Notes under the pieces: model-generated
Seen by the model: only the letters and a program-made list of their open reading frames with translations
Database searches by the model: none
What the model was told of the DNA's origin: nothing
In this document: positions 9,244 to 27,261 of the stretch, in pieces
Position numbering within the stretch: the first letter of the stretch is position 1
How the letters are laid out: each line of letters begins with the position of its first letter
Program-made: the position numbers and the translations under genes
Origin: a phage
DNA length: 64,000 nt
Reading direction: 5' to 3' (one strand)
Sequence record: NC_135729.1

Positions 9244-9320
9244 TGGTCTCCACGGAGTGATTCGAACACTCGACCTCCTGATCCCAAATCAGGCGCTCTA
9301 CCAAGCTGAGCTACGCGGAG
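9244..9320 (-). tRNA. tRNA-Pro (anticodon UGG)
   Basis: Cloverleaf read by eye on minus strand; anticodon loop UUUGGGA; T-loop TTCGAAT; C1:G72 pair; CCA encoded. Confidence 0.8.
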
Positions 9321-9331
9321 TATCTACTATT

Positions 9332-9406
9332 TGGTGGCCCTGGGTGGAATTGAACCACCGTCTGGCGATTATGAGTCGCTTGCTTGAACCTTCCAGCTAC
9401 AGGGCC
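9332..9406 (-). tRNA. tRNA-Met (anticodon CAU; could be Ile2/lysidine type)
   Basis: Acceptor GGCCCTG/CAGGGCC; anticodon loop CTCATAA; T-arm GGTGG-TTCAATT-CCACC; CCA encoded. Confidence 0.7.
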
Positions 9407-9407
9407 A

Positions 9408-9483
9408 TGGTGCTGATGGCAGGACTTGAACCCGCAACCTATTGATTACAAATCAATTGCACTACCAATTGTGCTACATCAGC
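9408..9483 (-). tRNA. tRNA-Thr (anticodon UGU)
   Basis: Acceptor GCTGATG/CATCAGC; D-arm GCAC-AATTGGTA-GTGC; anticodon loop TTTGTAA; CCA encoded. Confidence 0.8.
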
Positions 9484-9488
9484 AAAAA

Positions 9489-9587
9489 GGTGCTAGGCGG
9501 TGGAATCGAACCACCTATGTATTCAACGACTACCTCGTCTATTTTCAGGATTAAAAATCCTCGCCCTTGCCAAAGGGCTTACCTAGC
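9489..9587 (-). tRNA. atypical tRNA-like element (99 nt; candidate anticodon UUU)
   Basis: Canonical acceptor, D-arm, anticodon-like hairpin and T-arm (GGTGG-TTCGATT-CCACC), but about 29 nt separate anticodon stem and T-stem; ends in CC not CCA. Confidence 0.35.
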
Positions 9588-9685
9588 TCAATATGTTGAC
9601 CATGTTGCTAGTCGGCGATGACGACTGTAACATTTGATAATCCGGTTCTGCTTCCGGCTTTCGCTTAATTGCAAGGTCAACAATG

Positions 9686-9776
9686 TGGCGGAGAGTAATG
9701 GAATCGAACCATCATCGAGTCATCCTCAACGGGACGGTTTTCAAGACCGCTTGAGCACCATTGCTCCCTACCCTCC
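9686..9776 (-). tRNA. tRNA-Ser (anticodon UGA), type II
   Basis: Acceptor GGAGGGT/ACTCTCC; anticodon loop CTTGAAA; long variable arm; 91 nt; CCA encoded. Confidence 0.7.
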
Positions 9777-9891
9777 TTTATAAATTATACTGATAATGAC
9801 ACTGATTTTCGAGCAGTTAGTGACTAGTATAAACGACGATAAATATCAATGCCATTATCTGTATTATTTATGCATCTAAAAAATATAAATT

Positions 9892-9978
9892 TGGTGGGGA
9901 GTGGTGGAGTCGAACCACCCGAGTCGCAATGACAATAGATTTACAGTCTACACCGCTACCTCTACGGGATAACTCCCC
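9892..9978 (-). tRNA. tRNA-Tyr (anticodon GUA), type II
   Basis: Acceptor GGGGAGT/ACTCCCC; anticodon loop CTGTAAA; T-arm GGTGG-TTCGACT-CCACC; 87 nt; CCA encoded. Confidence 0.75.
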
Positions 9979-9982
9979 AATT

Positions 9983-10057
9983 TGGCACCCCGTACTGGAC
10001 TCGAACCAGTGTCAACGGCTTAGAAGGCCGCTGCTTTATCCACTAAGCTAACAGGGC
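9983..10057 (-). tRNA. tRNA-Arg (anticodon UCU)
   Basis: D-arm GCTT-AGTGGATA-AAGC; anticodon loop CTTCTAA; T-arm ACTGG-TTCGAGT-CCAGT; CCA encoded. Confidence 0.75.
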
Positions 10058-12426: not shown

Positions 12427-12509
12427 GTGTCCGTATCACGGACAGTTAGTGTCCGTATTACGGGCAGATGTGTCCGCGTGACGGACAGTAGTGTCCGTAT
12501 CACGGGCAG
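12427..12509. repeat. four tandem 19-bp iterons with internal dyad (GTGTCCGTATCACGGACAG-like), about 21-bp spacing
   Basis: Units start at 12427, 12449, 12470, 12491; each holds the inverted repeat TGTCCGT..ACGGACA. Confidence 0.7.
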
Positions 12510-12583
12510 TTACTGACCTCTGTTCCAGAGCGAACATAAAACATACGAATCCTTATAGTACAGATATTTAAGTTTTTACTGGT

Positions 12584-12934
12584 CTAACCAGTTGTTGACA
12601 TTCGAATAACCTCTTCTGGTGGCAAAACTTTGGAAAATGTACATCTTTTACCTCTCCCTTGTGTGGATATTTCAACCACTCCTGCACATTCTAAAGTTTT
12701 AACGCACGCTGCTGCTTTTGTTTTCTTTATCCCAACATCTGCTGCAATTTTCCTTGTGCTTGGTGTGAAGCGTGAATTTCCTCCAAGCTTATACCAGTTG
12801 TGCAGGTAGCAGTATACGATCTTGTCATATAAGTCAAGAACAACAGCCTCCCCAGTTGTGTCATTCAAAACTTTTGACATAGACAGTATTTCAAGGGGGA
12901 CTTTAAGATATAGCAGCTTATCCCCATCTTTCAT
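12584..12934 (-). CDS. putative winged-helix DNA-binding protein
   Basis: 116 aa; helix-turn-helix-like segment STRKIAADVGIKKTKAAACVKTLECAGVV; lies next to the iteron array. Confidence 0.4.
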   Translation of the reverse strand: MKDGDKLLYLKVPLEILSMSKVLNDTTGEAVVLDLYDKIVYCYLHNWYKLGGNSRFTPSTRKIAADVGIKKTKAAACVKTLECAGVVEISTQGRGKRCTFSKVLPPEEVIRMSTTG

Positions 12935-12981
12935 ATCTCCTGATTCTCCTTGTGTGGCAATTTTCTTTAAAATAGCAGGGA

Positions 12982-13536
12982 TTACTCCCCGCTGTCAATA
13001 GCAAGACTCATTGCAATACGGTATGCCTCTTCTAATGGTAAGAGTCTCCCCCACACATCCCAACCGACATCAAACTGCCTGCCAAACAACTGCTGTGTGG
13101 TTCCGTGAGCATGACCGAACAGTTGGACTGATCCGTGAGGCTTTCTGTTCCACTTTGCAAACTGGTAATGGCTCATACAGATCAAATTCTTGTTGTGGCG
13201 AAGCTCGTAATAATCTACAACCTCATGACCGAACTCTTTCATAATTCTGACAGTCGTCCTTGTGTCATGGTTACCACGAACAAGAATAATATGTCCGTTC
13301 AACATATTTAGAACATCTGGGAGCAATTTGTTGATATTCTTATCATTAGTGCACGCAATATCTCCCAAGTGAAACACAGTGTCTGCAGGTGACACAACAG
13401 AGTTCCACTCGGCGATGATTCCCGCATTCATACTGTCAAGATTGTGATCATACTGAGATCTGTGTTTTTGACATGAATCAAACTCCATGACCCGCTGGTG
13501 GAGAAAGTGTGTGTCGCTTGTTACAAAGTATTTCAT
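12982..13536 (-). CDS. calcineurin-like metallophosphoesterase
   Basis: Motifs SDTHF, GDIACT, GNHD, HAHG; start set at ATG 13536 with GAGGAA. Confidence 0.6.
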   Translation of the reverse strand: MKYFVTSDTHFLHQRVMEFDSCQKHRSQYDHNLDSMNAGIIAEWNSVVSPADTVFHLGDIACTNDKNINKLLPDVLNMLNGHIILVRGNHDTRTTVRIMKEFGHEVVDYYELRHNKNLICMSHYQFAKWNRKPHGSVQLFGHAHGTTQQLFGRQFDVGWDVWGRLLPLEEAYRIAMSLAIDSGE

Positions 13537-13543
13537 ACATTCC

Positions 13544-13953
13544 TCATTTAAGTTTAATGCAGTTTTTAAGCTGGCGTTCCATACGATCCACAACCTTGTC
13601 TGGAACATCATGAATGCTTTTATTACCGTGGCGGTTTTCAACCACGATCACGGTATAACTATACCCGTGACTGATTGCCATGTCAACATATTCCTGCACA
13701 TGTTTTTCTTTTGTAAACGTATTACTTACCACGATACGGTCGTATCCCGTACGCATCATATCTTCTACGTTATCTTTGCACCATTTTGCTGCGAGTGTTA
13801 CTTTACTTGCATCCCAGTTGTAATTGCCGTCATCGTCATACCAGAACATGTCGTTCTCAAAATGTGGATACAGACCTTCTAAAGATAGCGCATTTGCCAG
13901 TGTTGATTTGCCAGACCCTGGCAGACCACGCACGATATATAGCATTTTAGACA
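13544..13953 (-). CDS. P-loop kinase (polynucleotide 5'-kinase-like)
   Basis: Walker A GLPGSGKST eight residues from N-terminus, as in the T4 Pnk kinase domain; start at ATG 13953 with GGAGG. Confidence 0.5.
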
Positions 13954-13982
13954 TAGCAACCCTCCGTTTTAATTTTAATGAT

Positions 13983-14011
13983 AGTATACCTAACTGTTTT
14001 GTTAATTTCAA
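13983..14011 (-). promoter_or_regulatory. sigma70-like promoter for the kinase/phosphoesterase operon
   Basis: TTGAAA - 17 nt - TATACT on minus strand. Confidence 0.5.
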
Positions 14012-14014
14012 GTG

Positions 14015-14045
14015 TTGACACTAGGTTATTTGTGTGGCATGATAG
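14015..14045 (+). promoter_or_regulatory. sigma70-like promoter heading the plus-strand block
   Basis: GTTGACA - 18 nt - ATGATA; the -35 context is shared by other plus-strand promoters. Confidence 0.45.
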
Positions 14046-14072
14046 ACTGACAAAATGACAAATGAGGAACGT

Positions 14073-14990
14073 ATGATGAAGTATTTTAATGCAGATGACC
14101 TAGTAGACAAAGGTCTTGTAACCAGTCGGTATTATCCAGATCTTGGATTAAAGATCTATAAATATGCCAGAAAAGTATTCTACAACAATCTGTGGCATTT
14201 GTCTCCGCGTTTACTGGAGTGCCGAGGTATTGTTGTTGGCAATGAGGGGAATGTTGTGGCATGGCCTTTCACAAAAGTATTCAACTTAGGAGAAAACTCC
14301 ACCAACCTACCGGACAGTAAACTTGTTACTGCGGTAGAGAAAAAGAACGGATTCCTCGGTGTGGTATCATCTCATAAAGGTGAACTATTGTTCTCAACAA
14401 CCGGGTCTCTTGATTCTCCATATTGTAACCTTGCAAAGGAAACCATCCAAGAGCAATGTGGTAATTTAGATCTTATCAAGAAGGTTATGGGCAATGAAAA
14501 CATGACATTCATGTTTGAAATTTGTCACCCTTCAGATCCGCATATTGTTCAGGAAGATCATGGCGCATATTTGATAGGTTGCAGATATAATGATTCTGGA
14601 ATAATGCTACCAGAAGCAGCTTTAGATGGGATTGCCAAATACCTTGGTGCAAAACGTCCTCACACTGTGCGTGAAATTCCGTTCAGCTATGCAAAAGAAT
14701 TAGCTGCAGAAACAAGAGGTGAAGGGTATATGATTCGTAAGCCTTACTACCCTTATGATCTGCAGCTGAAGATCAAGTCTCCATACTATCTGGCACGGAA
14801 GGCCGTAATGAGGGGTAAAGCTTGGAAGATTTGGGATGATGATATCTTTAAACGTGTTGACGAAGAGTTTTACGGCATGGTAAACTTCATTCGTAGCAAT
14901 TACACAGAGGATGTGTGGAACTGCCTCCTGGAGCAGGAACGCCGTGAGATACTTGATTACTATTTCCACAACGAGAACTATATGCAATGA
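14073..14990 (+). CDS. RNA ligase (Rnl1/Trl1-type nucleotidyltransferase)
   Basis: Motif I KKNG (KxNG), motif IV EGYMIRK, motif V LKIKS; start at ATG 14073 with GAGGAA. Confidence 0.55.
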   Translation: MMKYFNADDLVDKGLVTSRYYPDLGLKIYKYARKVFYNNLWHLSPRLLECRGIVVGNEGNVVAWPFTKVFNLGENSTNLPDSKLVTAVEKKNGFLGVVSSHKGELLFSTTGSLDSPYCNLAKETIQEQCGNLDLIKKVMGNENMTFMFEICHPSDPHIVQEDHGAYLIGCRYNDSGIMLPEAALDGIAKYLGAKRPHTVREIPFSYAKELAAETRGEGYMIRKPYYPYDLQLKIKSPYYLARKAVMRGKAWKIWDDDIFKRVDEEFYGMVNFIRSNYTEDVWNCLLEQERREILDYYFHNENYMQ

Positions 14991-15337
14991 AGAAGTTGAT
15001 TGTGTGGCTAGATGACTTAAGAGATCCGTCAAATTACGGGCTCCCAGACGCTGTTTGGCTGAAGAATTCCTCCGAGTTTATGGATTTTATTAACGATAAG
15101 GGAAAGCTCTACAGACGCGTTTCTGAGTGGCATATGGACAACGACCTAGGAGAAGTATTCGAAGGATACGATTGCCTATCCATGTTGGAGGAAAAATTTG
15201 TATTCGGTAAGCCTCCCGTGGTTGACAACGTGAAGATTTTCGTACATACTTCTAATCCATCAGCGGCTCGTAAATTCATGCTTGCAGCTGACTCGTTTAA
15301 AAAGTTTGGAATAGAGATTAAACAAAACATCTACTGA
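14987..15337 (+). CDS. hypothetical flavodoxin-fold (CheY-receiver/TIR-like) protein
   Basis: IVWLDD N-terminus, SEWHMDNDLGE and IFVHTSNP segments resemble receiver-domain landmarks; weak. Confidence 0.3.
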   Translation: MKKLIVWLDDLRDPSNYGLPDAVWLKNSSEFMDFINDKGKLYRRVSEWHMDNDLGEVFEGYDCLSMLEEKFVFGKPPVVDNVKIFVHTSNPSAARKFMLAADSFKKFGIEIKQNIY

Positions 15338-15345
15338 GGGCACTT

Positions 15346-16107
15346 ATGCGACGACTGATTATTATCTCCGGTGCTGGTTTGAGCGCTGAATCTGGTATTC
15401 CCACTTTCCGATCTGGTAGTACTGCAATGTGGGAGAATTTCAGCATAGATGAGGTGTGCAACATCCACACCTTCGCCAAGAACTACTATAAGGTGCATGA
15501 CTTTTACAATGCACGTCGTGTAGCTCTGGGCAGTGTTGATCCTAACCTTGCACATCTCCGGATCGCTGAGTGGTATTCCCGCTGGTCTGGTCGTGTGATC
15601 AACCTGACCACCAATGTAGATGATTTGCTGGAGCGTGCTGGTGTAAAACATGAAGATATTTTACATGTCCACGGGTATTTGCCTGAAATCACCTATGAAG
15701 ATACTGAAGGTAATGATGTAATTAAAAATATAGGGTACACGGAGGTAGATACAGGCAAGTATACCTGGGTTAAGCCCAATGTAGTGTTCTTCGGTGAGGT
15801 TGCTCCTAAGTATACAGACATGTATGACCTGTTGACATCTCTTACCAGCAATGATATGGTGATCCTGGTAGGTTGTTCTAACACAGTTATTAATTTTAAC
15901 TGGGAATTGTTTCCTGCTACTTGTAAAGGCACAAAACTGCTGATTGTAAACAAGTATGATTCGCAGAGTGCAGATGGAAGTGGCATTTCACGTAGCGACC
16001 TTTATCAATATGAGGATCGCGGGATCCCTGTATGGTTTAACGGTGCTGTTGACGCTTTCTCTGATAAAGCATTTATTGAAACTGTAGAAAACTTTATGGA
16101 ACTGTAA
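15346..16107 (+). CDS. Sir2-family NAD-dependent protein (zinc-ribbon-less sirtuin)
   Basis: GAGLSAESGIPTFRS NAD-binding motif, TTNVDDLLERAG, HVHG catalytic His; no Cys tetrad. Confidence 0.7.
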   Translation: MRRLIIISGAGLSAESGIPTFRSGSTAMWENFSIDEVCNIHTFAKNYYKVHDFYNARRVALGSVDPNLAHLRIAEWYSRWSGRVINLTTNVDDLLERAGVKHEDILHVHGYLPEITYEDTEGNDVIKNIGYTEVDTGKYTWVKPNVVFFGEVAPKYTDMYDLLTSLTSNDMVILVGCSNTVINFNWELFPATCKGTKLLIVNKYDSQSADGSGISRSDLYQYEDRGIPVWFNGAVDAFSDKAFIETVENFMEL

Positions 16108-16121
16108 GAGGTGACCTTTTA

Positions 16122-16835
16122 ATGCTAAATACTAAACTGATCGACAACCTGGAAAAACTGTCTCAGCCAGAAAACTACCTTTGGTCTGCCAGTTGGGTGG
16201 AAAATTGGAACCGTGTAGCAGCTAAAGTGAAAAAATCATACACACCATTCGAACTCCAGCTCAGTTTTATTGAAGAAGAGTTTAATGAGGTTCTTGAAGA
16301 GTTGGAGAAAGGTGATGGTGGAGATCACCTGCTAAAAGAGGCCTGTGATCTGCACGTTGTTACAAGTTATGCCGCTTATCTTGTCAACGATAACTACGAA
16401 AAGTGGACAAGTCTGTTTGATAATTCGCGAGATATTAAGTTTAAGATTGGGGAGTTCTATGATACACTGATCGCTGCTAAAAACACACCAAAGCAAAAAG
16501 CGTCTGCTTACCGACTAGCGGAGTTATCAACAGCTTTGCTGTTCCAGCTTAGCGGGGATGTGTGTGGGATGATGCGGAAGGTTCTCAAATCTAATGACAG
16601 TAAGTTTGCGCGGATCAACCATCTACGGCATTCACACGGTGCTAGTGCAGATATGCCTGCTGAACAACTCATAGAGTTGGAGATTAAAGATCTTGAGCGA
16701 CGCTTTGATGGTCGCTACGAAGGTTTTGTTGCTAAGGAAGAGTTCTACAACGGTAATAAAGTTATCATATTCCTTGACAGTAAAGGTAAGATCATGAAGC
16801 CTTCGAGCTTCAAGGATGTAACAGAGTATATTTGA
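16122..16835 (+). CDS. putative MazG-like NTP pyrophosphohydrolase domain protein
   Basis: EEEFNEVLEELEKGDGGDHLLKEACD resembles the EExxE...ExxD metal-binding helices; weak. Confidence 0.3.
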   Translation: MLNTKLIDNLEKLSQPENYLWSASWVENWNRVAAKVKKSYTPFELQLSFIEEEFNEVLEELEKGDGGDHLLKEACDLHVVTSYAAYLVNDNYEKWTSLFDNSRDIKFKIGEFYDTLIAAKNTPKQKASAYRLAELSTALLFQLSGDVCGMMRKVLKSNDSKFARINHLRHSHGASADMPAEQLIELEIKDLERRFDGRYEGFVAKEEFYNGNKVIIFLDSKGKIMKPSSFKDVTEYI

Positions 16836-16841
16836 CAACAT

Positions 16842-16868
16842 AGCCGGGTAATCCCGGCTTTACTTATT
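16842..16868 (+). terminator. putative rho-independent terminator
   Basis: AGCCGGG-taat-CCCGGCT stem followed by TTACTTATT. Confidence 0.4.
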
Positions 16869-16897
16869 ATGGAAAGTATGCAGCGAGGTAGTTAGTT

Positions 16898-17206
16898 ATG
16901 TACAAGCATTCCAGAGATCTTGAAAAAGATGCTGTGTTTGGCGACCAGATGAAGGAGCTGATCAAACTTATAGGTAGAATGGAAGATAAGTTTGACACTA
17001 AAATCTACATCGATAGCAAGATCTTCAACCACAAAATATGGACAAATGTGTGTGTTGGGCTACATGGTGATAAAGATATTGTAAATTTGGTTGTAATAAA
17101 GTTCATAGTGTGGCAGAATAAGACTATACGTTATTCCGATCCACACTTACTTGTTTATCCTATAAAAGACCTACTACAGAAGGAGGACTGCAATGCCGTT
17201 ATTTAA
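16898..17206 (+). CDS. hypothetical protein
   Basis: 102-aa ORF. Confidence 0.35.
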   Translation: MYKHSRDLEKDAVFGDQMKELIKLIGRMEDKFDTKIYIDSKIFNHKIWTNVCVGLHGDKDIVNLVVIKFIVWQNKTIRYSDPHLLVYPIKDLLQKEDCNAVI

Positions 17207-17462
17207 TCTTGCTAAACCTGTAGAAGCCCACCAGTTTGACGGAAGCTCTTCATCAGTATCTGATCTGCAACGGTGGATTGATACAGGTGTGTTTACATCG
17301 TCACCTGTTCGGACCAGAGATCTTCGTCGCATGTGTGAGCTTGTCGAGCCTTTTGGTAACCTTGTCTTGTACCAGGGAGATTGGCTAGTTGACTTTATGG
17401 GAGACTGGTTGGTAATGAGTAAAGAAGAGATGTTTAAAATTTTTAAGGAAGAGGCCGAGTAA
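17193..17462 (+). CDS. hypothetical protein
   Basis: 89-aa ORF; stop overlaps the ligase start. Confidence 0.35.
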   Translation: MPLFNLAKPVEAHQFDGSSSSVSDLQRWIDTGVFTSSPVRTRDLRRMCELVEPFGNLVLYQGDWLVDFMGDWLVMSKEEMFKIFKEEAE

Positions 17463-18745
17463 TGCATCAAATCAAAACAACACTGTACGCACTGAACAAA
17501 GATGGCAGCTACCAACAGTGGAAAGTATTCACTGATGGCGAAAAGGTTATCGTAGAGTTTGGCAAGCTTGACGGTAAATTGCAGTACAAAGAGACGGTAT
17601 GCACACCTAAGAACGTAGGTCGTGCCAATGAGACTACAGCTGAGCAACAGGCCGAGCTTGAGGCTATCAGCAAGTGGGAAAAACAAGTCCGTCTGGGGTA
17701 TGTTGAAAACATGGAAGATTGCGAGCAGGGTGTTGATCTTTTACCCATGCTGGTGCATGACTACCTGAAGCGTGGCAAGGCACTTAAACTACCTTGCTGG
17801 ATCTTGCGTAAGTTAGATGGCCTTCGTCTGCTTGTTGTTTTCCAAAATGGTGAGCCTAAATTTATTTCCCGTGGTAATAAGTCCTACCCTATTCAAGGAA
17901 AGCTTTTAGAGCAACTTCGTTCTTTCCATTCTACCACTGGGATTAAACAACTTGATGGGGAACTATACATTCATGGTCTTCCTTTGCAGAAAATAGTGTC
18001 TCTTGCTAAACGGTGGCGCACACAGGAAGAGATTCAGGCCGAGATCGATAAAGACTATGAGGCAGATAAAAAACGCCGTCATGCCGCAATTAAGTCCGGC
18101 TTATCAACATATAAAAACTTCAACAAGGTAGATATTCCTGTCGATGTTGAGCCTGTTCGTGATGATTTGCGTTACGGTGGGTACTGTAGCTACGATCTGG
18201 AGTATCACATTTTTGATATTCCTAGCGACAAGGTGTGGTGGGATCCCGAAACAGAGTCTGGACGCTGCAAGGATCTTATGGATGCAGAGGATACCGTTAC
18301 CACTCTGATGCTTGACCATATCAAGGTTGTTGACGCAGAGCTTGCGTACACAGTTGATCATTGCGAAGAATCTGTTGGTATATTCATGTCCGAAGGATAT
18401 GAAGGTACCATTATGCGTAACTTCTGTGGTAAATATGAGTACGGTCAGAGAACATCTGAAGCATTGAAATGGAAAAAGTTCAACGACGCAGAGGTGAAAG
18501 TTATTGACGTTGAGAAAGATAAGAATGATGAAGGTGTTCTTATCTGTGTTGACAAGGAAGGTATTGTTGTTAAAATGAAGATGAAAGGTACGCACGAGGA
18601 GCGTAGCTATGACAGAATGCAGGAAATGATCGGCAAGTTTGTCACCTTCAAATATCAAGCAAGGACAGAAGACAACAACTACCAATTCCCTGTCGGTATC
18701 TGCGTCCGAAATGTTAACCCAGACACTTGGGAGGTGCTGGAATAA
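17462..18745 (+). CDS. ATP-dependent DNA ligase
   Basis: Motif I KLDGLR, motif IV EGTIMR, motif V KWKK; 427 aa. Confidence 0.7.
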   Translation: MHQIKTTLYALNKDGSYQQWKVFTDGEKVIVEFGKLDGKLQYKETVCTPKNVGRANETTAEQQAELEAISKWEKQVRLGYVENMEDCEQGVDLLPMLVHDYLKRGKALKLPCWILRKLDGLRLLVVFQNGEPKFISRGNKSYPIQGKLLEQLRSFHSTTGIKQLDGELYIHGLPLQKIVSLAKRWRTQEEIQAEIDKDYEADKKRRHAAIKSGLSTYKNFNKVDIPVDVEPVRDDLRYGGYCSYDLEYHIFDIPSDKVWWDPETESGRCKDLMDAEDTVTTLMLDHIKVVDAELAYTVDHCEESVGIFMSEGYEGTIMRNFCGKYEYGQRTSEALKWKKFNDAEVKVIDVEKDKNDEGVLICVDKEGIVVKMKMKGTHEERSYDRMQEMIGKFVTFKYQARTEDNNYQFPVGICVRNVNPDTWEVLE

Positions 18746-26060: not shown

Positions 26061-26674
26061 TGGATATTATTGTTCTTAACGCCCCACCCAGCAGTGGTAA
26101 GGATCACATTGCAGATCTCTTGTTGGAAGCTATTCCTAACTCACACCACCGTGAGGTTAAGGAAATGCTCTTCAGTGTGGCAATTAAGGCAGCTGGTGTA
26201 ACTCCTCAACTCTGGAATGCACTTTATGACCGCCACTACAAAGAAGAGCCTTGCCCTTTCTTAATGATAGACGGCAAGCATGTTTCTCCGCGAGAATGGA
26301 TGATCCATTGTAGTGAAAATCTGATTAAACCTATCTTTGGTGAAGATGCTTTCGGTAAAGCCGCAGTCGCATCTTTGAAGAAAGATTTCCCTGAAGGTAA
26401 AGGGGTTATTGTTTACTCCGATGGGGGATTCAAAGAGGAGCTGGCATGCCTTAGCGAGTACGCATACAGCACAGGTGGAGATCTGTTGTTGTTCCGTATT
26501 CACCGTGTAGGATATGACTGGGGAAATGATTCCAGAACCTATCTAAGTCTGGAAAAGAACGGAATAAAAGGGGTTGAGTTTGATGTTGTAAACCCTGAAG
26601 GTGCACCTTGGGAGTGTGCATCGGAGATTGTGTGCAAGTATATTGATGCTAAAGAGGCCCAAGAAGAATGTTAA
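26060..26674 (+). CDS. putative deoxynucleoside monophosphate kinase
   Basis: N-terminal LNAPPSSGKDHIADLL P-loop-like motif resembling T4 gp1. Confidence 0.4.
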   Translation: MDIIVLNAPPSSGKDHIADLLLEAIPNSHHREVKEMLFSVAIKAAGVTPQLWNALYDRHYKEEPCPFLMIDGKHVSPREWMIHCSENLIKPIFGEDAFGKAAVASLKKDFPEGKGVIVYSDGGFKEELACLSEYAYSTGGDLLLFRIHRVGYDWGNDSRTYLSLEKNGIKGVEFDVVNPEGAPWECASEIVCKYIDAKEAQEEC

Positions 26675-27261
26675 TCGGAATTGATGTAGATCTGACACTG
26701 GTAGATTCAGGAACAGCATGGTGGGAGTGGTTGGAGCGTTTGTATGGTCCAGCCAGTAAGACAGTAGCTAAACCTTCTAATGGGCTAATGTATTACGATC
26801 TGTCAAAGTATTGGCCTGATCGTCCCAAAGAAAACATCATAGGACCTTTTGATTTCTGGAGTGATCCGTTCCTCTACGACTTCCTTAAGCCTGAAGAGGG
26901 GGCTATTGAGGTTATGAAAGATTTGGTGGCTCGTGGTCACAAGCTTGCATTTATCTCGGTATGCAAGAAAGGTCACCTTGCATCTAAATCAAGGTTCTTA
27001 AAGCGTTGGACCAGTGATTTTATGGATCTGGACGATCACACCCAGGGCCACGGCTTCTACGCCACACATTTCAAAGGTAATGTGGCTGTAGATGTTATAA
27101 TTGACGACAGGCATGAATACCTGAACCAATTCGCTTCACGACCTGAAGTTATTAAAATCCTAAAAGACACACCTTATGAGCAATTCGAGGAGTTAAAGGT
27201 CAGTGTTGACTATACCACTAATAGCTGGTATAAAATAGGAAAGTTTTTAGAAGGTATTTGA
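26668..27261 (+). CDS. HAD-superfamily 5'(3')-deoxyribonucleotidase-like phosphatase
   Basis: GIDVDLTLVDS (DxDxT motif I) and IIDDR motif. Confidence 0.5.
   Translation: MLIGIDVDLTLVDSGTAWWEWLERLYGPASKTVAKPSNGLMYYDLSKYWPDRPKENIIGPFDFWSDPFLYDFLKPEEGAIEVMKDLVARGHKLAFISVCKKGHLASKSRFLKRWTSDFMDLDDHTQGHGFYATHFKGNVAVDVIIDDRHEYLNQFASRPEVIKILKDTPYEQFEELKVSVDYTTNSWYKIGKFLEGI

Follow-up and report, generated by a model that had tools for sequence, protein, structure and literature searches.

What do three small phage genes, those for a P-loop kinase, a metallophosphoesterase, and an RNA ligase, do around a shared divergent control region? The question is raised by a stretch of phage DNA of 64,000 nucleotides (sequence record NC_135729.1; the whole stretch is called the window below), for which an earlier note made from the letters alone had proposed a three-gene RNA repair module. 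The three open reading frames are present on the strands given there, and the protein assignments are profile matches with E-values far below chance and beyond motif coincidence. The profile searches that the note had recommended, together with independent active-site tests, upheld each assignment. The three-gene extent did not hold: the ligase is predicted to be co-transcribed with genes for a cREC protein, a Sir2-family protein, and a MazG-like protein up to a terminator-like hairpin at 16842-16859, and the feature is a six-gene, two-operon cluster occupying 12974-16859 (Table 1). We put the probability that this cluster is a phage RNA end-healing and sealing system at roughly 0.72. The kinase, the phosphoesterase, and the ligase are its widely conserved core, to which cREC, Sir2, and MazG are a lineage-restricted addition.

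The RNA ligase scores 55.5 bits with the Pfam family RNA_lig_T4_1 (PF09511; cut-off 28.3, E=9e-15), reaches 4e-66 with phrog_562, which the match covers only to position 322 of 377, and has 38.1 bits with the NCBIfam equivalog TIGR02308, far under the cut-off of 242. Judged by these profiles, it falls within the broad Pfam family without being an equivalog of T4 RnlA. Among 5.8 billion proteins searched, 1680 ligase relatives came up, mostly of about 300 amino acids. When the ligase and the kinase were run against the PDB as single sequences, the result was noise only, and family profiles were used instead; for the profile of 37 ligase relatives, T4 Rnl1 was the sole match among all PDB sequences (E=4.6e-13). 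Direct alignment with RnlA from the T4 genome (hhalign) gave a probability of 97.5% over T4 residues 33-248. The ligase motifs I, IV, and V that the earlier note had picked out are there as KKNG (14340-14351, with Lys96 as the predicted nucleophile), EGY (Glu223-Gly224), and KIKS (Lys239/Lys241 at 14769-14777), with Glu155 as motif III. K96-x-N-G99, E155, E223-G224, and K239/K241 are invariant in the 37 homologues and align with T4 K99/G102, E159, E227/G228, and K240/K242. The residues essential to T4 Rnl1 are Arg54, Lys75, Phe77, Lys99, Gly102, Glu159, Glu227, Gly228, Lys240, and Lys242, a set partly restated elsewhere, as the next reference shows. Part of it can be found in PMC6379707. Arg54, Lys75, and Phe77 are aligned with R57, K74, and F76, which are likewise invariant in the phage ligase family. 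The catalytic residues of the RNA ligase are thus all invariant, and its enzymatic activity is therefore under selection. About 260 ligase residues superimpose, on Trl1 about 257/383, and the short helical C-terminus (residues ~243-306) matches neither the tRNA-specificity domain of T4 nor the C-domain of Trl1. Profile, fold, and motif tests agree with the Rnl1/Trl1 type assigned before and set the protein between T4 Rnl1 and fungal Trl1; the description that suits it best is that of a distinct subfamily, compact in size, within the Rnl1/Trl1 adenylyltransferase lineage.

The kinase carries its Walker A motif, GLPGSGKST, at residues 10-18 (13901-13927) and matches AAA_33 (1.4e-10), phrog_2071 (9e-58), and phrog_505, named "polynucleotide kinase" (5e-10). 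The invariants of its family are the P-loop, Asp35, Asn78-Thr79, and an ENRHG motif. Its catalytic residue would be Asp35 (13850-13852), as the general base is an aspartate in the known enzymes, Asp35 in T4 and Asp38 in Clostridium. hhalign sets the kinase on T4 PseT residues 1-142 (probability 96.3%, E=1.7e-9) with the invariant Asp35 on T4 Asp35. Further along, T4 Arg126, which like T4 Arg38 is one of the arginines in contact with acceptor and phosphate, corresponds to the variable Lys112, and the invariant R108 of ENRHG faces T4 Arg122, in a part of the alignment that is of low confidence. Against PDB sequences, the family profile finds first the stand-alone RNA 5'-OH kinase of Mucorales (9D8A, 2e-6; identified from PMC11571804), then T4 Pnk (7e-5), Pnkp1 of the Pnkp1/Rnl/Hen1 repair complex (1e-4), PSTK, and Clostridium Pnk (5e-4). 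The AlphaFold 2 model (predicted local distance difference test score, pLDDT, of 91.8) reaches query-normalised template modelling (TM) scores of 0.72-0.76 with Clostridium Pnk (4JT2/4GP6), T4 Pnk (1LY1/2IA5), and the tRNA kinase PSTK (3ADC), the best superposition being that on Clostridium polynucleotide kinase (0.76), against only 0.45-0.60 with UMP-CMP, adenylate, shikimate, and gluconate kinases. By sequence and model, the protein appears to belong with the T4 and Clostridium polynucleotide kinases and is predicted to be a 5'-OH kinase. The T4 Pnk-like identity given in the earlier note was thus retained on profile, fold, and P-loop, and the gene end was corrected: 13953 is one base short of 13954, and the frame implied by 13544-13953 is wrong, its translation giving stop codons.

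The phosphoesterase passes both Pfam cut-offs, with 29 bits for Metallophos_2 (cut-off 27) and 28.2 bits for Metallophos (cut-off 21.5), and matches phrog_547 "phosphoesterase" at 3e-51. The calcineurin type read from its motifs holds, all six signature motifs (D8 and H10, G58-D59, G88-N89-H90, H123, G141-H142, H144) being invariant in 30 homologues from viral contigs. Its nearest solved relative is Aquifex aq_1665 (1XM7; profile E=1e-23), followed by GpdQ-type and YfcE-type enzymes. Binuclear metallophosphoesterases that open and remove 2',3'-cyclic phosphates are known from Clostridium thermocellum Pnkp and from lambda phosphatase (PMC2190708). The phage protein is predicted to be the 3'-end healing enzyme, acting as a 2',3'-cyclic phosphodiesterase and/or a 2'/3'-phosphatase.

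That the three proteins act together, as had been proposed, gains strong support from their conserved linkage in distant phages, from gene fusions, and from pairing with other RNA ligase families. A scan of IMG/VR viral contigs seeded with the ligase gave 80 loci at 33-89% identity, which clustering at 90% ligase identity reduced to 60 non-redundant ones. Counting neighbours within 8 kb, the kinase is found in 54 of the 60, the phosphoesterase in 52, and both in 49. The gene orders are phosphoesterase-ligase-kinase (31), kinase-ligase-phosphoesterase (13), and ligase-phosphoesterase-kinase (4), with a median kinase-ligase gap of -2.5 nt. The linked genes are co-directional everywhere except in the window's own lineage; the divergent arrangement of the window is therefore taken as a derived inversion of a co-directional cassette. 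In about a dozen loci (L041-L056, two non-redundant clusters), kinase and ligase are fused in single open reading frames of 418-426 amino acids, the kinase N-terminal and the ligase C-terminal (e.g., L050:7563-8825), and no phosphoesterase lies within 8 kb of these fusions. At least 662 sequenced phages have the triad as a whole, their hosts including Escherichia, Salmonella, Klebsiella, Pseudomonas, Vibrio, and Streptomyces.

A second scan, seeded with the kinase, covered 80 other, independent loci with neighbours within 6 kb. An RNA ligase, either Rnl1-type or of the unrelated Rnl5-like kind (PF09414/PHA02142), occurs in 47/80, a phosphoesterase, often overlapping the kinase gene, in 40/80, and a "Swiss army knife" RNA-repair HAD phosphatase in 6/80. 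Because the kinase/phosphoesterase pair is found beside different RNA ligases, it behaves as a portable two-gene end-healing unit. In the same scan, a conserved protein of 412-416 amino acids was seen directly downstream of the pair, in the usual RNA ligase slot (L084:7079-8317, L096:7070-8320, L118:7100-8344), with homologues in eight of the 80 loci. It was considered as a ligase relative and rejected, since Pfam, PHROG, and PDB sequences gave no match and its profile showed no similarity to that of the Rnl1-like ligases; the healing pair may have in it a partner that has so far been overlooked.

From these parts, the following course of repair is proposed. Transcription would begin early from two back-to-back sigma-70-type promoters. 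Metal-independent host ribonucleases would cut tRNA or other RNA to leave a 2',3'-cyclic phosphate at one end and a 5'-OH at the other; the 136-residue kinase would phosphorylate the 5'-OH, and the metallophosphoesterase, maybe helped or replaced by cREC, would open or remove the cyclic phosphate. The compact Rnl1/Trl1-type ligase would then adenylate the 5'-phosphate and close the break. In Vequintaviruses and close relatives, cREC, Sir2, and MazG would most likely handle the 2'-phosphate and NAD+-derived by-products. RNA as the substrate, the order of the steps, tRNA as the physiological target, and a role against host defences are the parts of this scheme that we infer.

Several observations weigh against RNA repair or against parts of the scheme. 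The nearest solved relative of the phosphoesterase, aq_1665, is without known function, and neither the Clostridium Pnkp phosphatase nor lambda phosphatase was matched in a profile search of the PDB up to E=1; the assignment of the phosphoesterase therefore draws on superfamily chemistry and gene context, as no specific kinship with either enzyme was detected. The kinase belongs to a very large family, with at least 8000 relatives of about 130 amino acids, and has Trp38 in place of T4 Arg38; in 23/80 kinase-seeded loci, neither ligase nor phosphoesterase lies within 6 kb. Compared with T4 Rnl1, the phage ligase is about 70 amino acids shorter. It has the invariant Thr116 at the position of Lys119, likewise essential in T4, and the all-helical C-terminal tRNA-specificity domain of T4 (~255-374) is absent, the alignments ending at T4 248-249; homology therefore gives no support to tRNA specificity. 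The window also encodes an ATP-dependent DNA ligase (17462-18745, +), which follows the RNA ligase 2.5 kb downstream, and a DNA ligase is found near the RNA ligase in 30/80 ligase loci, which leaves some probability for a DNA-end role of the healing enzymes. Literature searches found no experimental study of any of these proteins or of close homologues.

The alternative that survives best concerns the chemistry of the repair and refines RNA repair rather than denying it. By this account, cREC or the phosphoesterase heals the 3' end only to 3'-OH,2'-phosphate, which the ligase needs or tolerates, as in the Trl1/Tpt1 pathway; the zinc-less Sir2 then uses NAD+ to take off the junction 2'-phosphate, a task that falls to host KptA where Sir2 is absent, and the by-products are cleared by MazG and the phosphoesterase. 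We hold this to be possible, at clearly less than even odds. Its starting point is a pocket described in Chaetomium Trl1-LIG, where a sulfate, proposed as a mimic of the essential 2'-phosphate, is bound by Asn150 (motif I), His227, Arg334, and Arg337, four residues stated to be unique to the Trl1 clade (PMC6379707). The phage ligase family has an invariant Asn98 in its KxNG motif I, an invariant Asp-Pro-His whose His163 (14541-14543) lies eight residues past motif III, and an invariant Arg253 (14811-14813) twelve residues past motif V. The yeast Trl1 sequence used for comparison was checked against published residue numbers, with which its K114, H148, H193, K284, K286, R295, and R298 agree, and not against a database record. 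On this sequence, hhalign aligned His163 with His193 (E=2.9e-6), Arg253 stands opposite Arg298 when counted from motif V, and Asn98 is in register with N116. T4 Rnl1 has Asp101, Ile167, and Ser254 at the three positions, and the longer T4-like ligases beside the same kinase family have KMDG and lack both the His and the Arg, whereas the Asn/His/Arg pattern occurs in 75/80 ligase-seeded loci. As a lead drawn from sequence, N98/H163/R253 may form a 2'-phosphate pocket, and the chemistry may be Trl1/Tpt1-like, not T4-like.

The other three genes of the rightward operon bear on the same alternative. The cREC protein matches PF20274 (1.5e-14) and phrog_1479 (5e-35) and has invariant receiver-type acidic residues (D9, D10, D51/D53) plus S89 and K96; cREC was defined, and its linkage to RNA ligases remarked on, by Iyer et al. 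in 2021 (PMC7824862), and its action as a metal-independent cyclic phosphodiesterase is a published prediction (PMC7824862, PMC9503650). Sir2 matches PF02146 (7e-28) and phrog_2162 (1e-108), and its closest solved structure is E. coli CobB (1S5P, 3e-21), with SIRT5 also near; the catalytic His is kept (HVHG), and the zinc-module segment is without Cys. Such a protein is proposed to be an NAD+-dependent analogue of RNA 2'-phosphotransferase, the sirtuin having been suggested to act on 2'-phosphates like KptA/Tpt1 (PMC9503650, section 3.7.3). The MazG-like protein matches phrog_671 (4.8e-21), with no hit in Pfam or NCBIfam, and MazG is among the members of the phage V5 neighbourhood (PMC9503650). 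Sir2 and cREC share the ligase operon, and relatives have the order ligase-cREC-kinase-Sir2 (e.g., L004), which favours Trl1/Tpt1-type chemistry. Against it, cREC, Sir2, and MazG occur near the ligase in only 10-15/80 ligase-seeded loci, all of them relatives with genomes of about 145 kb (Sir2 or cREC within 8 kb in only about 10-13/80), and most ligase loci have a phosphoesterase able to remove the phosphate completely. By sequence profile, the ligase family matches T4 Rnl1 and not Trl1, which was not recovered in the profile search of the PDB up to E=10; the Trl1 comparison therefore stands on folds and on that yeast sequence. The first Arg of the Trl1 RxxR is, moreover, out of register, the phage K249 being one helical turn ahead of R253, and no sirtuin is known as an RNA 2'-phosphotransferase. 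The full combination, a Trl1-like ligase sealing 3'-OH,2'-phosphate, Sir2 as an NAD+-dependent RNA 2'-phosphotransferase, and cREC as a new cyclic phosphodiesterase, is a shade more doubtful still. If true, the tRNA-splicing chemistry of fungal Trl1/Tpt1 would have a viral counterpart run by enzymes that are mostly unrelated, and this could provide a natural substrate for bacterial KptA in the hosts of the many ligase phages without Sir2.

A role at DNA ends is improbable. Here, the kinase and the phosphoesterase would heal 3'-phosphate/5'-OH nicks that host nucleases or replication had left, on behalf of the phage DNA ligase, and the RNA-ligase-like protein would serve elsewhere, for example in tail-fibre attachment as described for T4 gp63. 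The DNA ligase genes mentioned above fit this idea, as do the dual action of T4 Pnkp on DNA and RNA (textbook knowledge), a faint NCBIfam resemblance between the phosphoesterase and PdeM, a ligase-associated DNA-damage endonuclease (E=2.4e-4, well short of the cut-off), and the PHROG name of the ligase family, which includes "tail fiber protein attachment catalyst". The kinase-seeded loci tell otherwise, with a DNA ligase in only 5/80 against an RNA ligase in 47/80; the kinase has the RNA ligase, and no DNA ligase, as its fusion partner, and the invariance of the RNA ligase catalytic residues also speaks against it. As an observation in its own right, RNA and DNA ligase genes tend to share the same genomic region.

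Slightly less probable again is a role in signalling, in which the phosphoesterase, cREC, MazG, and Sir2 would degrade or consume cyclic-nucleotide, ADP-ribose-derived, or alarmone immune signals, the kinase being a nucleotide kinase and the ligase incidental: comparative genomics places cREC, Sir2, and MazG in NAD+/ADP-ribose networks (PMC9503650, PMC7824862), phage calcineurin-like phosphodiesterases have been suggested to degrade cyclic nucleotides (PMC7824862), and the neighbouring genes are those of nucleotide metabolism (ribonucleotide reductase (RNR), ThyX, 5'-nucleotidase), but the phosphoesterase and the kinase track RNA ligases in distant phages without Sir2, cREC, or MazG, the kinase fold and catalytic Asp fit polynucleotide kinases over nucleotide kinases, and kinase-ligase fusions exist.

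RNA end healing and sealing, the preferred reading, can be set beside several known systems. T4 Pnkp (PseT) and RNA ligase 1 (RnlA) repair tRNA-Lys cut by the PrrC anticodon nuclease. The parallel to this pair drawn in the earlier note stands for the predicted healing and sealing roles; the chemical detail may differ, given the three Trl1-like residues absent from T4 Rnl1. In T4 Pnkp, the kinase is fused to an HAD (DxDxT) phosphatase, whereas the phage has a kinase on its own, with a binuclear metallophosphoesterase as the candidate for the phosphatase. Clostridium thermocellum Pnkp has the same combination of P-loop polynucleotide kinase, calcineurin-type 2',3'-cyclic-phosphate phosphoesterase, and ATP-dependent RNA ligase (PMC2190708) in one polypeptide, while the phage has three separate genes, no Hen1 methyltransferase, and a phosphoesterase of a different subfamily. 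The claim of a healing enzyme split in two with a calcineurin-type phosphatase is thus right as to the separate genes; the phosphatase type is no new twist, with precedents in Clostridium thermocellum Pnkp and lambda phosphatase (PMC2190708). Likeness to Trl1/Tpt1 is seen in the KxNG motif I, the His past motif III, and the Arg past motif V of the ligase and in the NAD+-using enzyme of the operon, and likeness to Mucorales in the splitting of ligase and RNA 5'-OH kinase into stand-alone proteins (PMC10946426, PMC11571804). Unlike the Trl1/Tpt1 pathway, the phage has a metallophosphoesterase or cREC, not a 2H enzyme, as its cyclic phosphodiesterase candidate and a sirtuin, not Tpt1/KptA, as its NAD+ enzyme, and its ligase lacks the Trl1 C-terminal domain.

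The finding is not new, since the genes are annotated and the neighbourhood has been published as a prediction. Iyer, Burroughs, Anand, de Souza, and Aravind described in 2022 a type 2 sirtuin-centred predicted RNA repair neighbourhood with Escherichia phage V5 and Proteus phage Mydo as prototypes (Viruses 14:1977; PMC9503650, section 3.7.3), the V5 neighbourhood being presented as a predicted NAD+-dependent RNA repair system. Its set is the same as the one found here, namely a T4-like tRNA ligase, cREC, a nucleotide kinase, a sirtuin, a MazG pyrophosphatase, and a calcineurin-like phosphoesterase, and all six genes are present at 12982-16835 with family matches. In that description, the phosphoesterase is occasional and the sirtuin central, whereas here the phosphoesterase-ligase-kinase triad is the widespread core (49/60). 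What is added is this triad, rather than the sirtuin, as the conserved core, the kinase-ligase fusions, and a putative Trl1-like pocket signature in the ligase.

Table 1. Genes and control signals of the two-operon cluster in the window.
Feature	Position	Strand	Basis
Terminator-like hairpin	12974..12993	-	AGCGGGGA-GTAA-TCCCTGCT then ATTTT; read from sequence
Metallophosphoesterase, calcineurin-type, binuclear, 184 aa	12982..13536	-	Pfam, PHROG, invariant motifs
Stand-alone P-loop polynucleotide-kinase-like protein, 136 aa	13544..13954	-	Profile, fold, Asp35
Divergent control region	13955..14072	.	Consensus scan, direct reading, L003 conservation
Compact RNA ligase, Rnl1/Trl1 adenylyltransferase type, ~304 aa	14073/14076..14990	+	Profile, motifs
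cREC (cyclic-phosphate-processing receiver-like) protein, 116 aa	14987..15337	+	PF20274, phrog_1479
Sir2-family protein, class III (CobB/SIRT5-like), 253 aa	15346..16107	+	PF02146, phrog_2162
MazG-like nucleotide pyrophosphohydrolase, 237 aa; the rightward operon ends with this gene	16122..16835	+	phrog_671
Intrinsic-terminator-like hairpin closing the ligase-cREC-Sir2-MazG operon	16842..16859	+	Scan

The leftward unit begins with the kinase, the phosphoesterase following after 7 nt, and is closed by a hairpin that overlaps the phosphoesterase stop codon; the annotation of phage Murica has a terminator at the equivalent position, and the consensus terminator scan did not call this hairpin, its T-run being too short. 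In the rightward unit, the start of cREC overlaps the ligase stop (ATGA), and the closing hairpin, with a 7-bp stem of six GC pairs and a T-rich tail, is again matched by a terminator at the same place in Murica. The divergent promoter described before is recovered as two sigma-70-like sites lying back to back in a 100-nt spacer with their -35 elements 3 bp apart, both calls being consensus matches predicted from sequence. The rightward site consists of TTGACA (-35, 14015-14020), 17 nt, and TG-n-CATGAT (extended -10, 14035-14043), and the leftward one of TTGAAA (-35, 14006-14011), 17 nt, and TATACT (-10, 13983-13988). In L003, a relative with 89% identity, the -35 and extended -10 of the rightward site stand out as conserved, while the rest of the spacer has diverged. 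GGAGGG precedes the kinase as a Shine-Dalgarno sequence. For the ligase, the start at 14073 (or 14076) was kept, with a GAGG Shine-Dalgarno at 14064 and homologues beginning with "MKF"; a start at 14055 was rejected, having no Shine-Dalgarno, lying 4-5 nt from the predicted transcript start, and using an ATG that is not conserved in L003.

Over its full length, the region 12500-16900 shares 98.1% identity with Escherichia phage PDX; identity is 95-96% with Murica, JES2013, AlexBoehm, and further rV5-like myoviruses in the genus Vequintavirus, whose sequenced members are 90-98% identical to the window. The phage of the window is itself an rV5-like Vequintavirus of E. coli. The labels of these genes vary among those records ("RNA ligase", "polynucleotide kinase"/"ATPase", "phosphoesterase", "Sir2", "nucleotide pyrophosphohydrolase"). 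Eighteen unannotated GenBank records named "Campylobacter phage" (among MG065644-MG065690) are also 96% identical to the region and look like mislabelled or contaminating coliphage genomes.

The distance of about 3 kb to a tRNA cluster, remarked on from the start, is accurate: the cluster occupies 9244-10057, 2.9 kb off, and one of its genes resembles tRNA-Lys(UUU), the tRNA that PrrC attacks. The copy near the repair genes is an unusual one, an odd tRNA of 97-99 nt at 9489-9587 (-), which ARAGORN reports as of undetermined type with a 4-base anticodon and which is annotated as tRNA-Lys in AlexBoehm and as "tRNA-OTHER" in Murica. Rfam aligns it as a tRNA (31 bits) with the anticodon loop UUUUUAA, that is, Lys(UUU), and an insert of about 27 nt in the variable arm. 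An intron in need of the ligase was considered and rejected, as the extra 27 nt are set in the variable arm and not in the anticodon loop.

Elsewhere in the window, an HAD-like gene at 26668-27261 (+), "hypothetical" in Murica, was considered as a "Swiss army knife" RNA repair phosphatase and rejected; it is a 5'-deoxynucleotidase (Pfam NT5C, 7e-06), and its product belongs to the nucleotide-metabolism block. The GC skew changes sign at ~14 kb, coinciding with the switch of transcription direction at the divergent promoter, and again at ~50 kb, where the collinear Murica annotation also switches gene strand.

To our knowledge, there are few ways in which the damage done by tRNA-cutting host defences is undone rather than avoided, phage RNA repair being one of them, and we know of no pair other than T4 Pnkp/Rnl1 that has been shown to do so. 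As at least 662 sequenced phages carry the triad, it may be a commoner solution than the T4 pair. The cluster is also a test bed for three published predictions, those of cREC as a cyclic phosphodiesterase, of the sirtuin as an RNA 2'-phosphotransferase, and of a small metallophosphoesterase as an RNA end healer.

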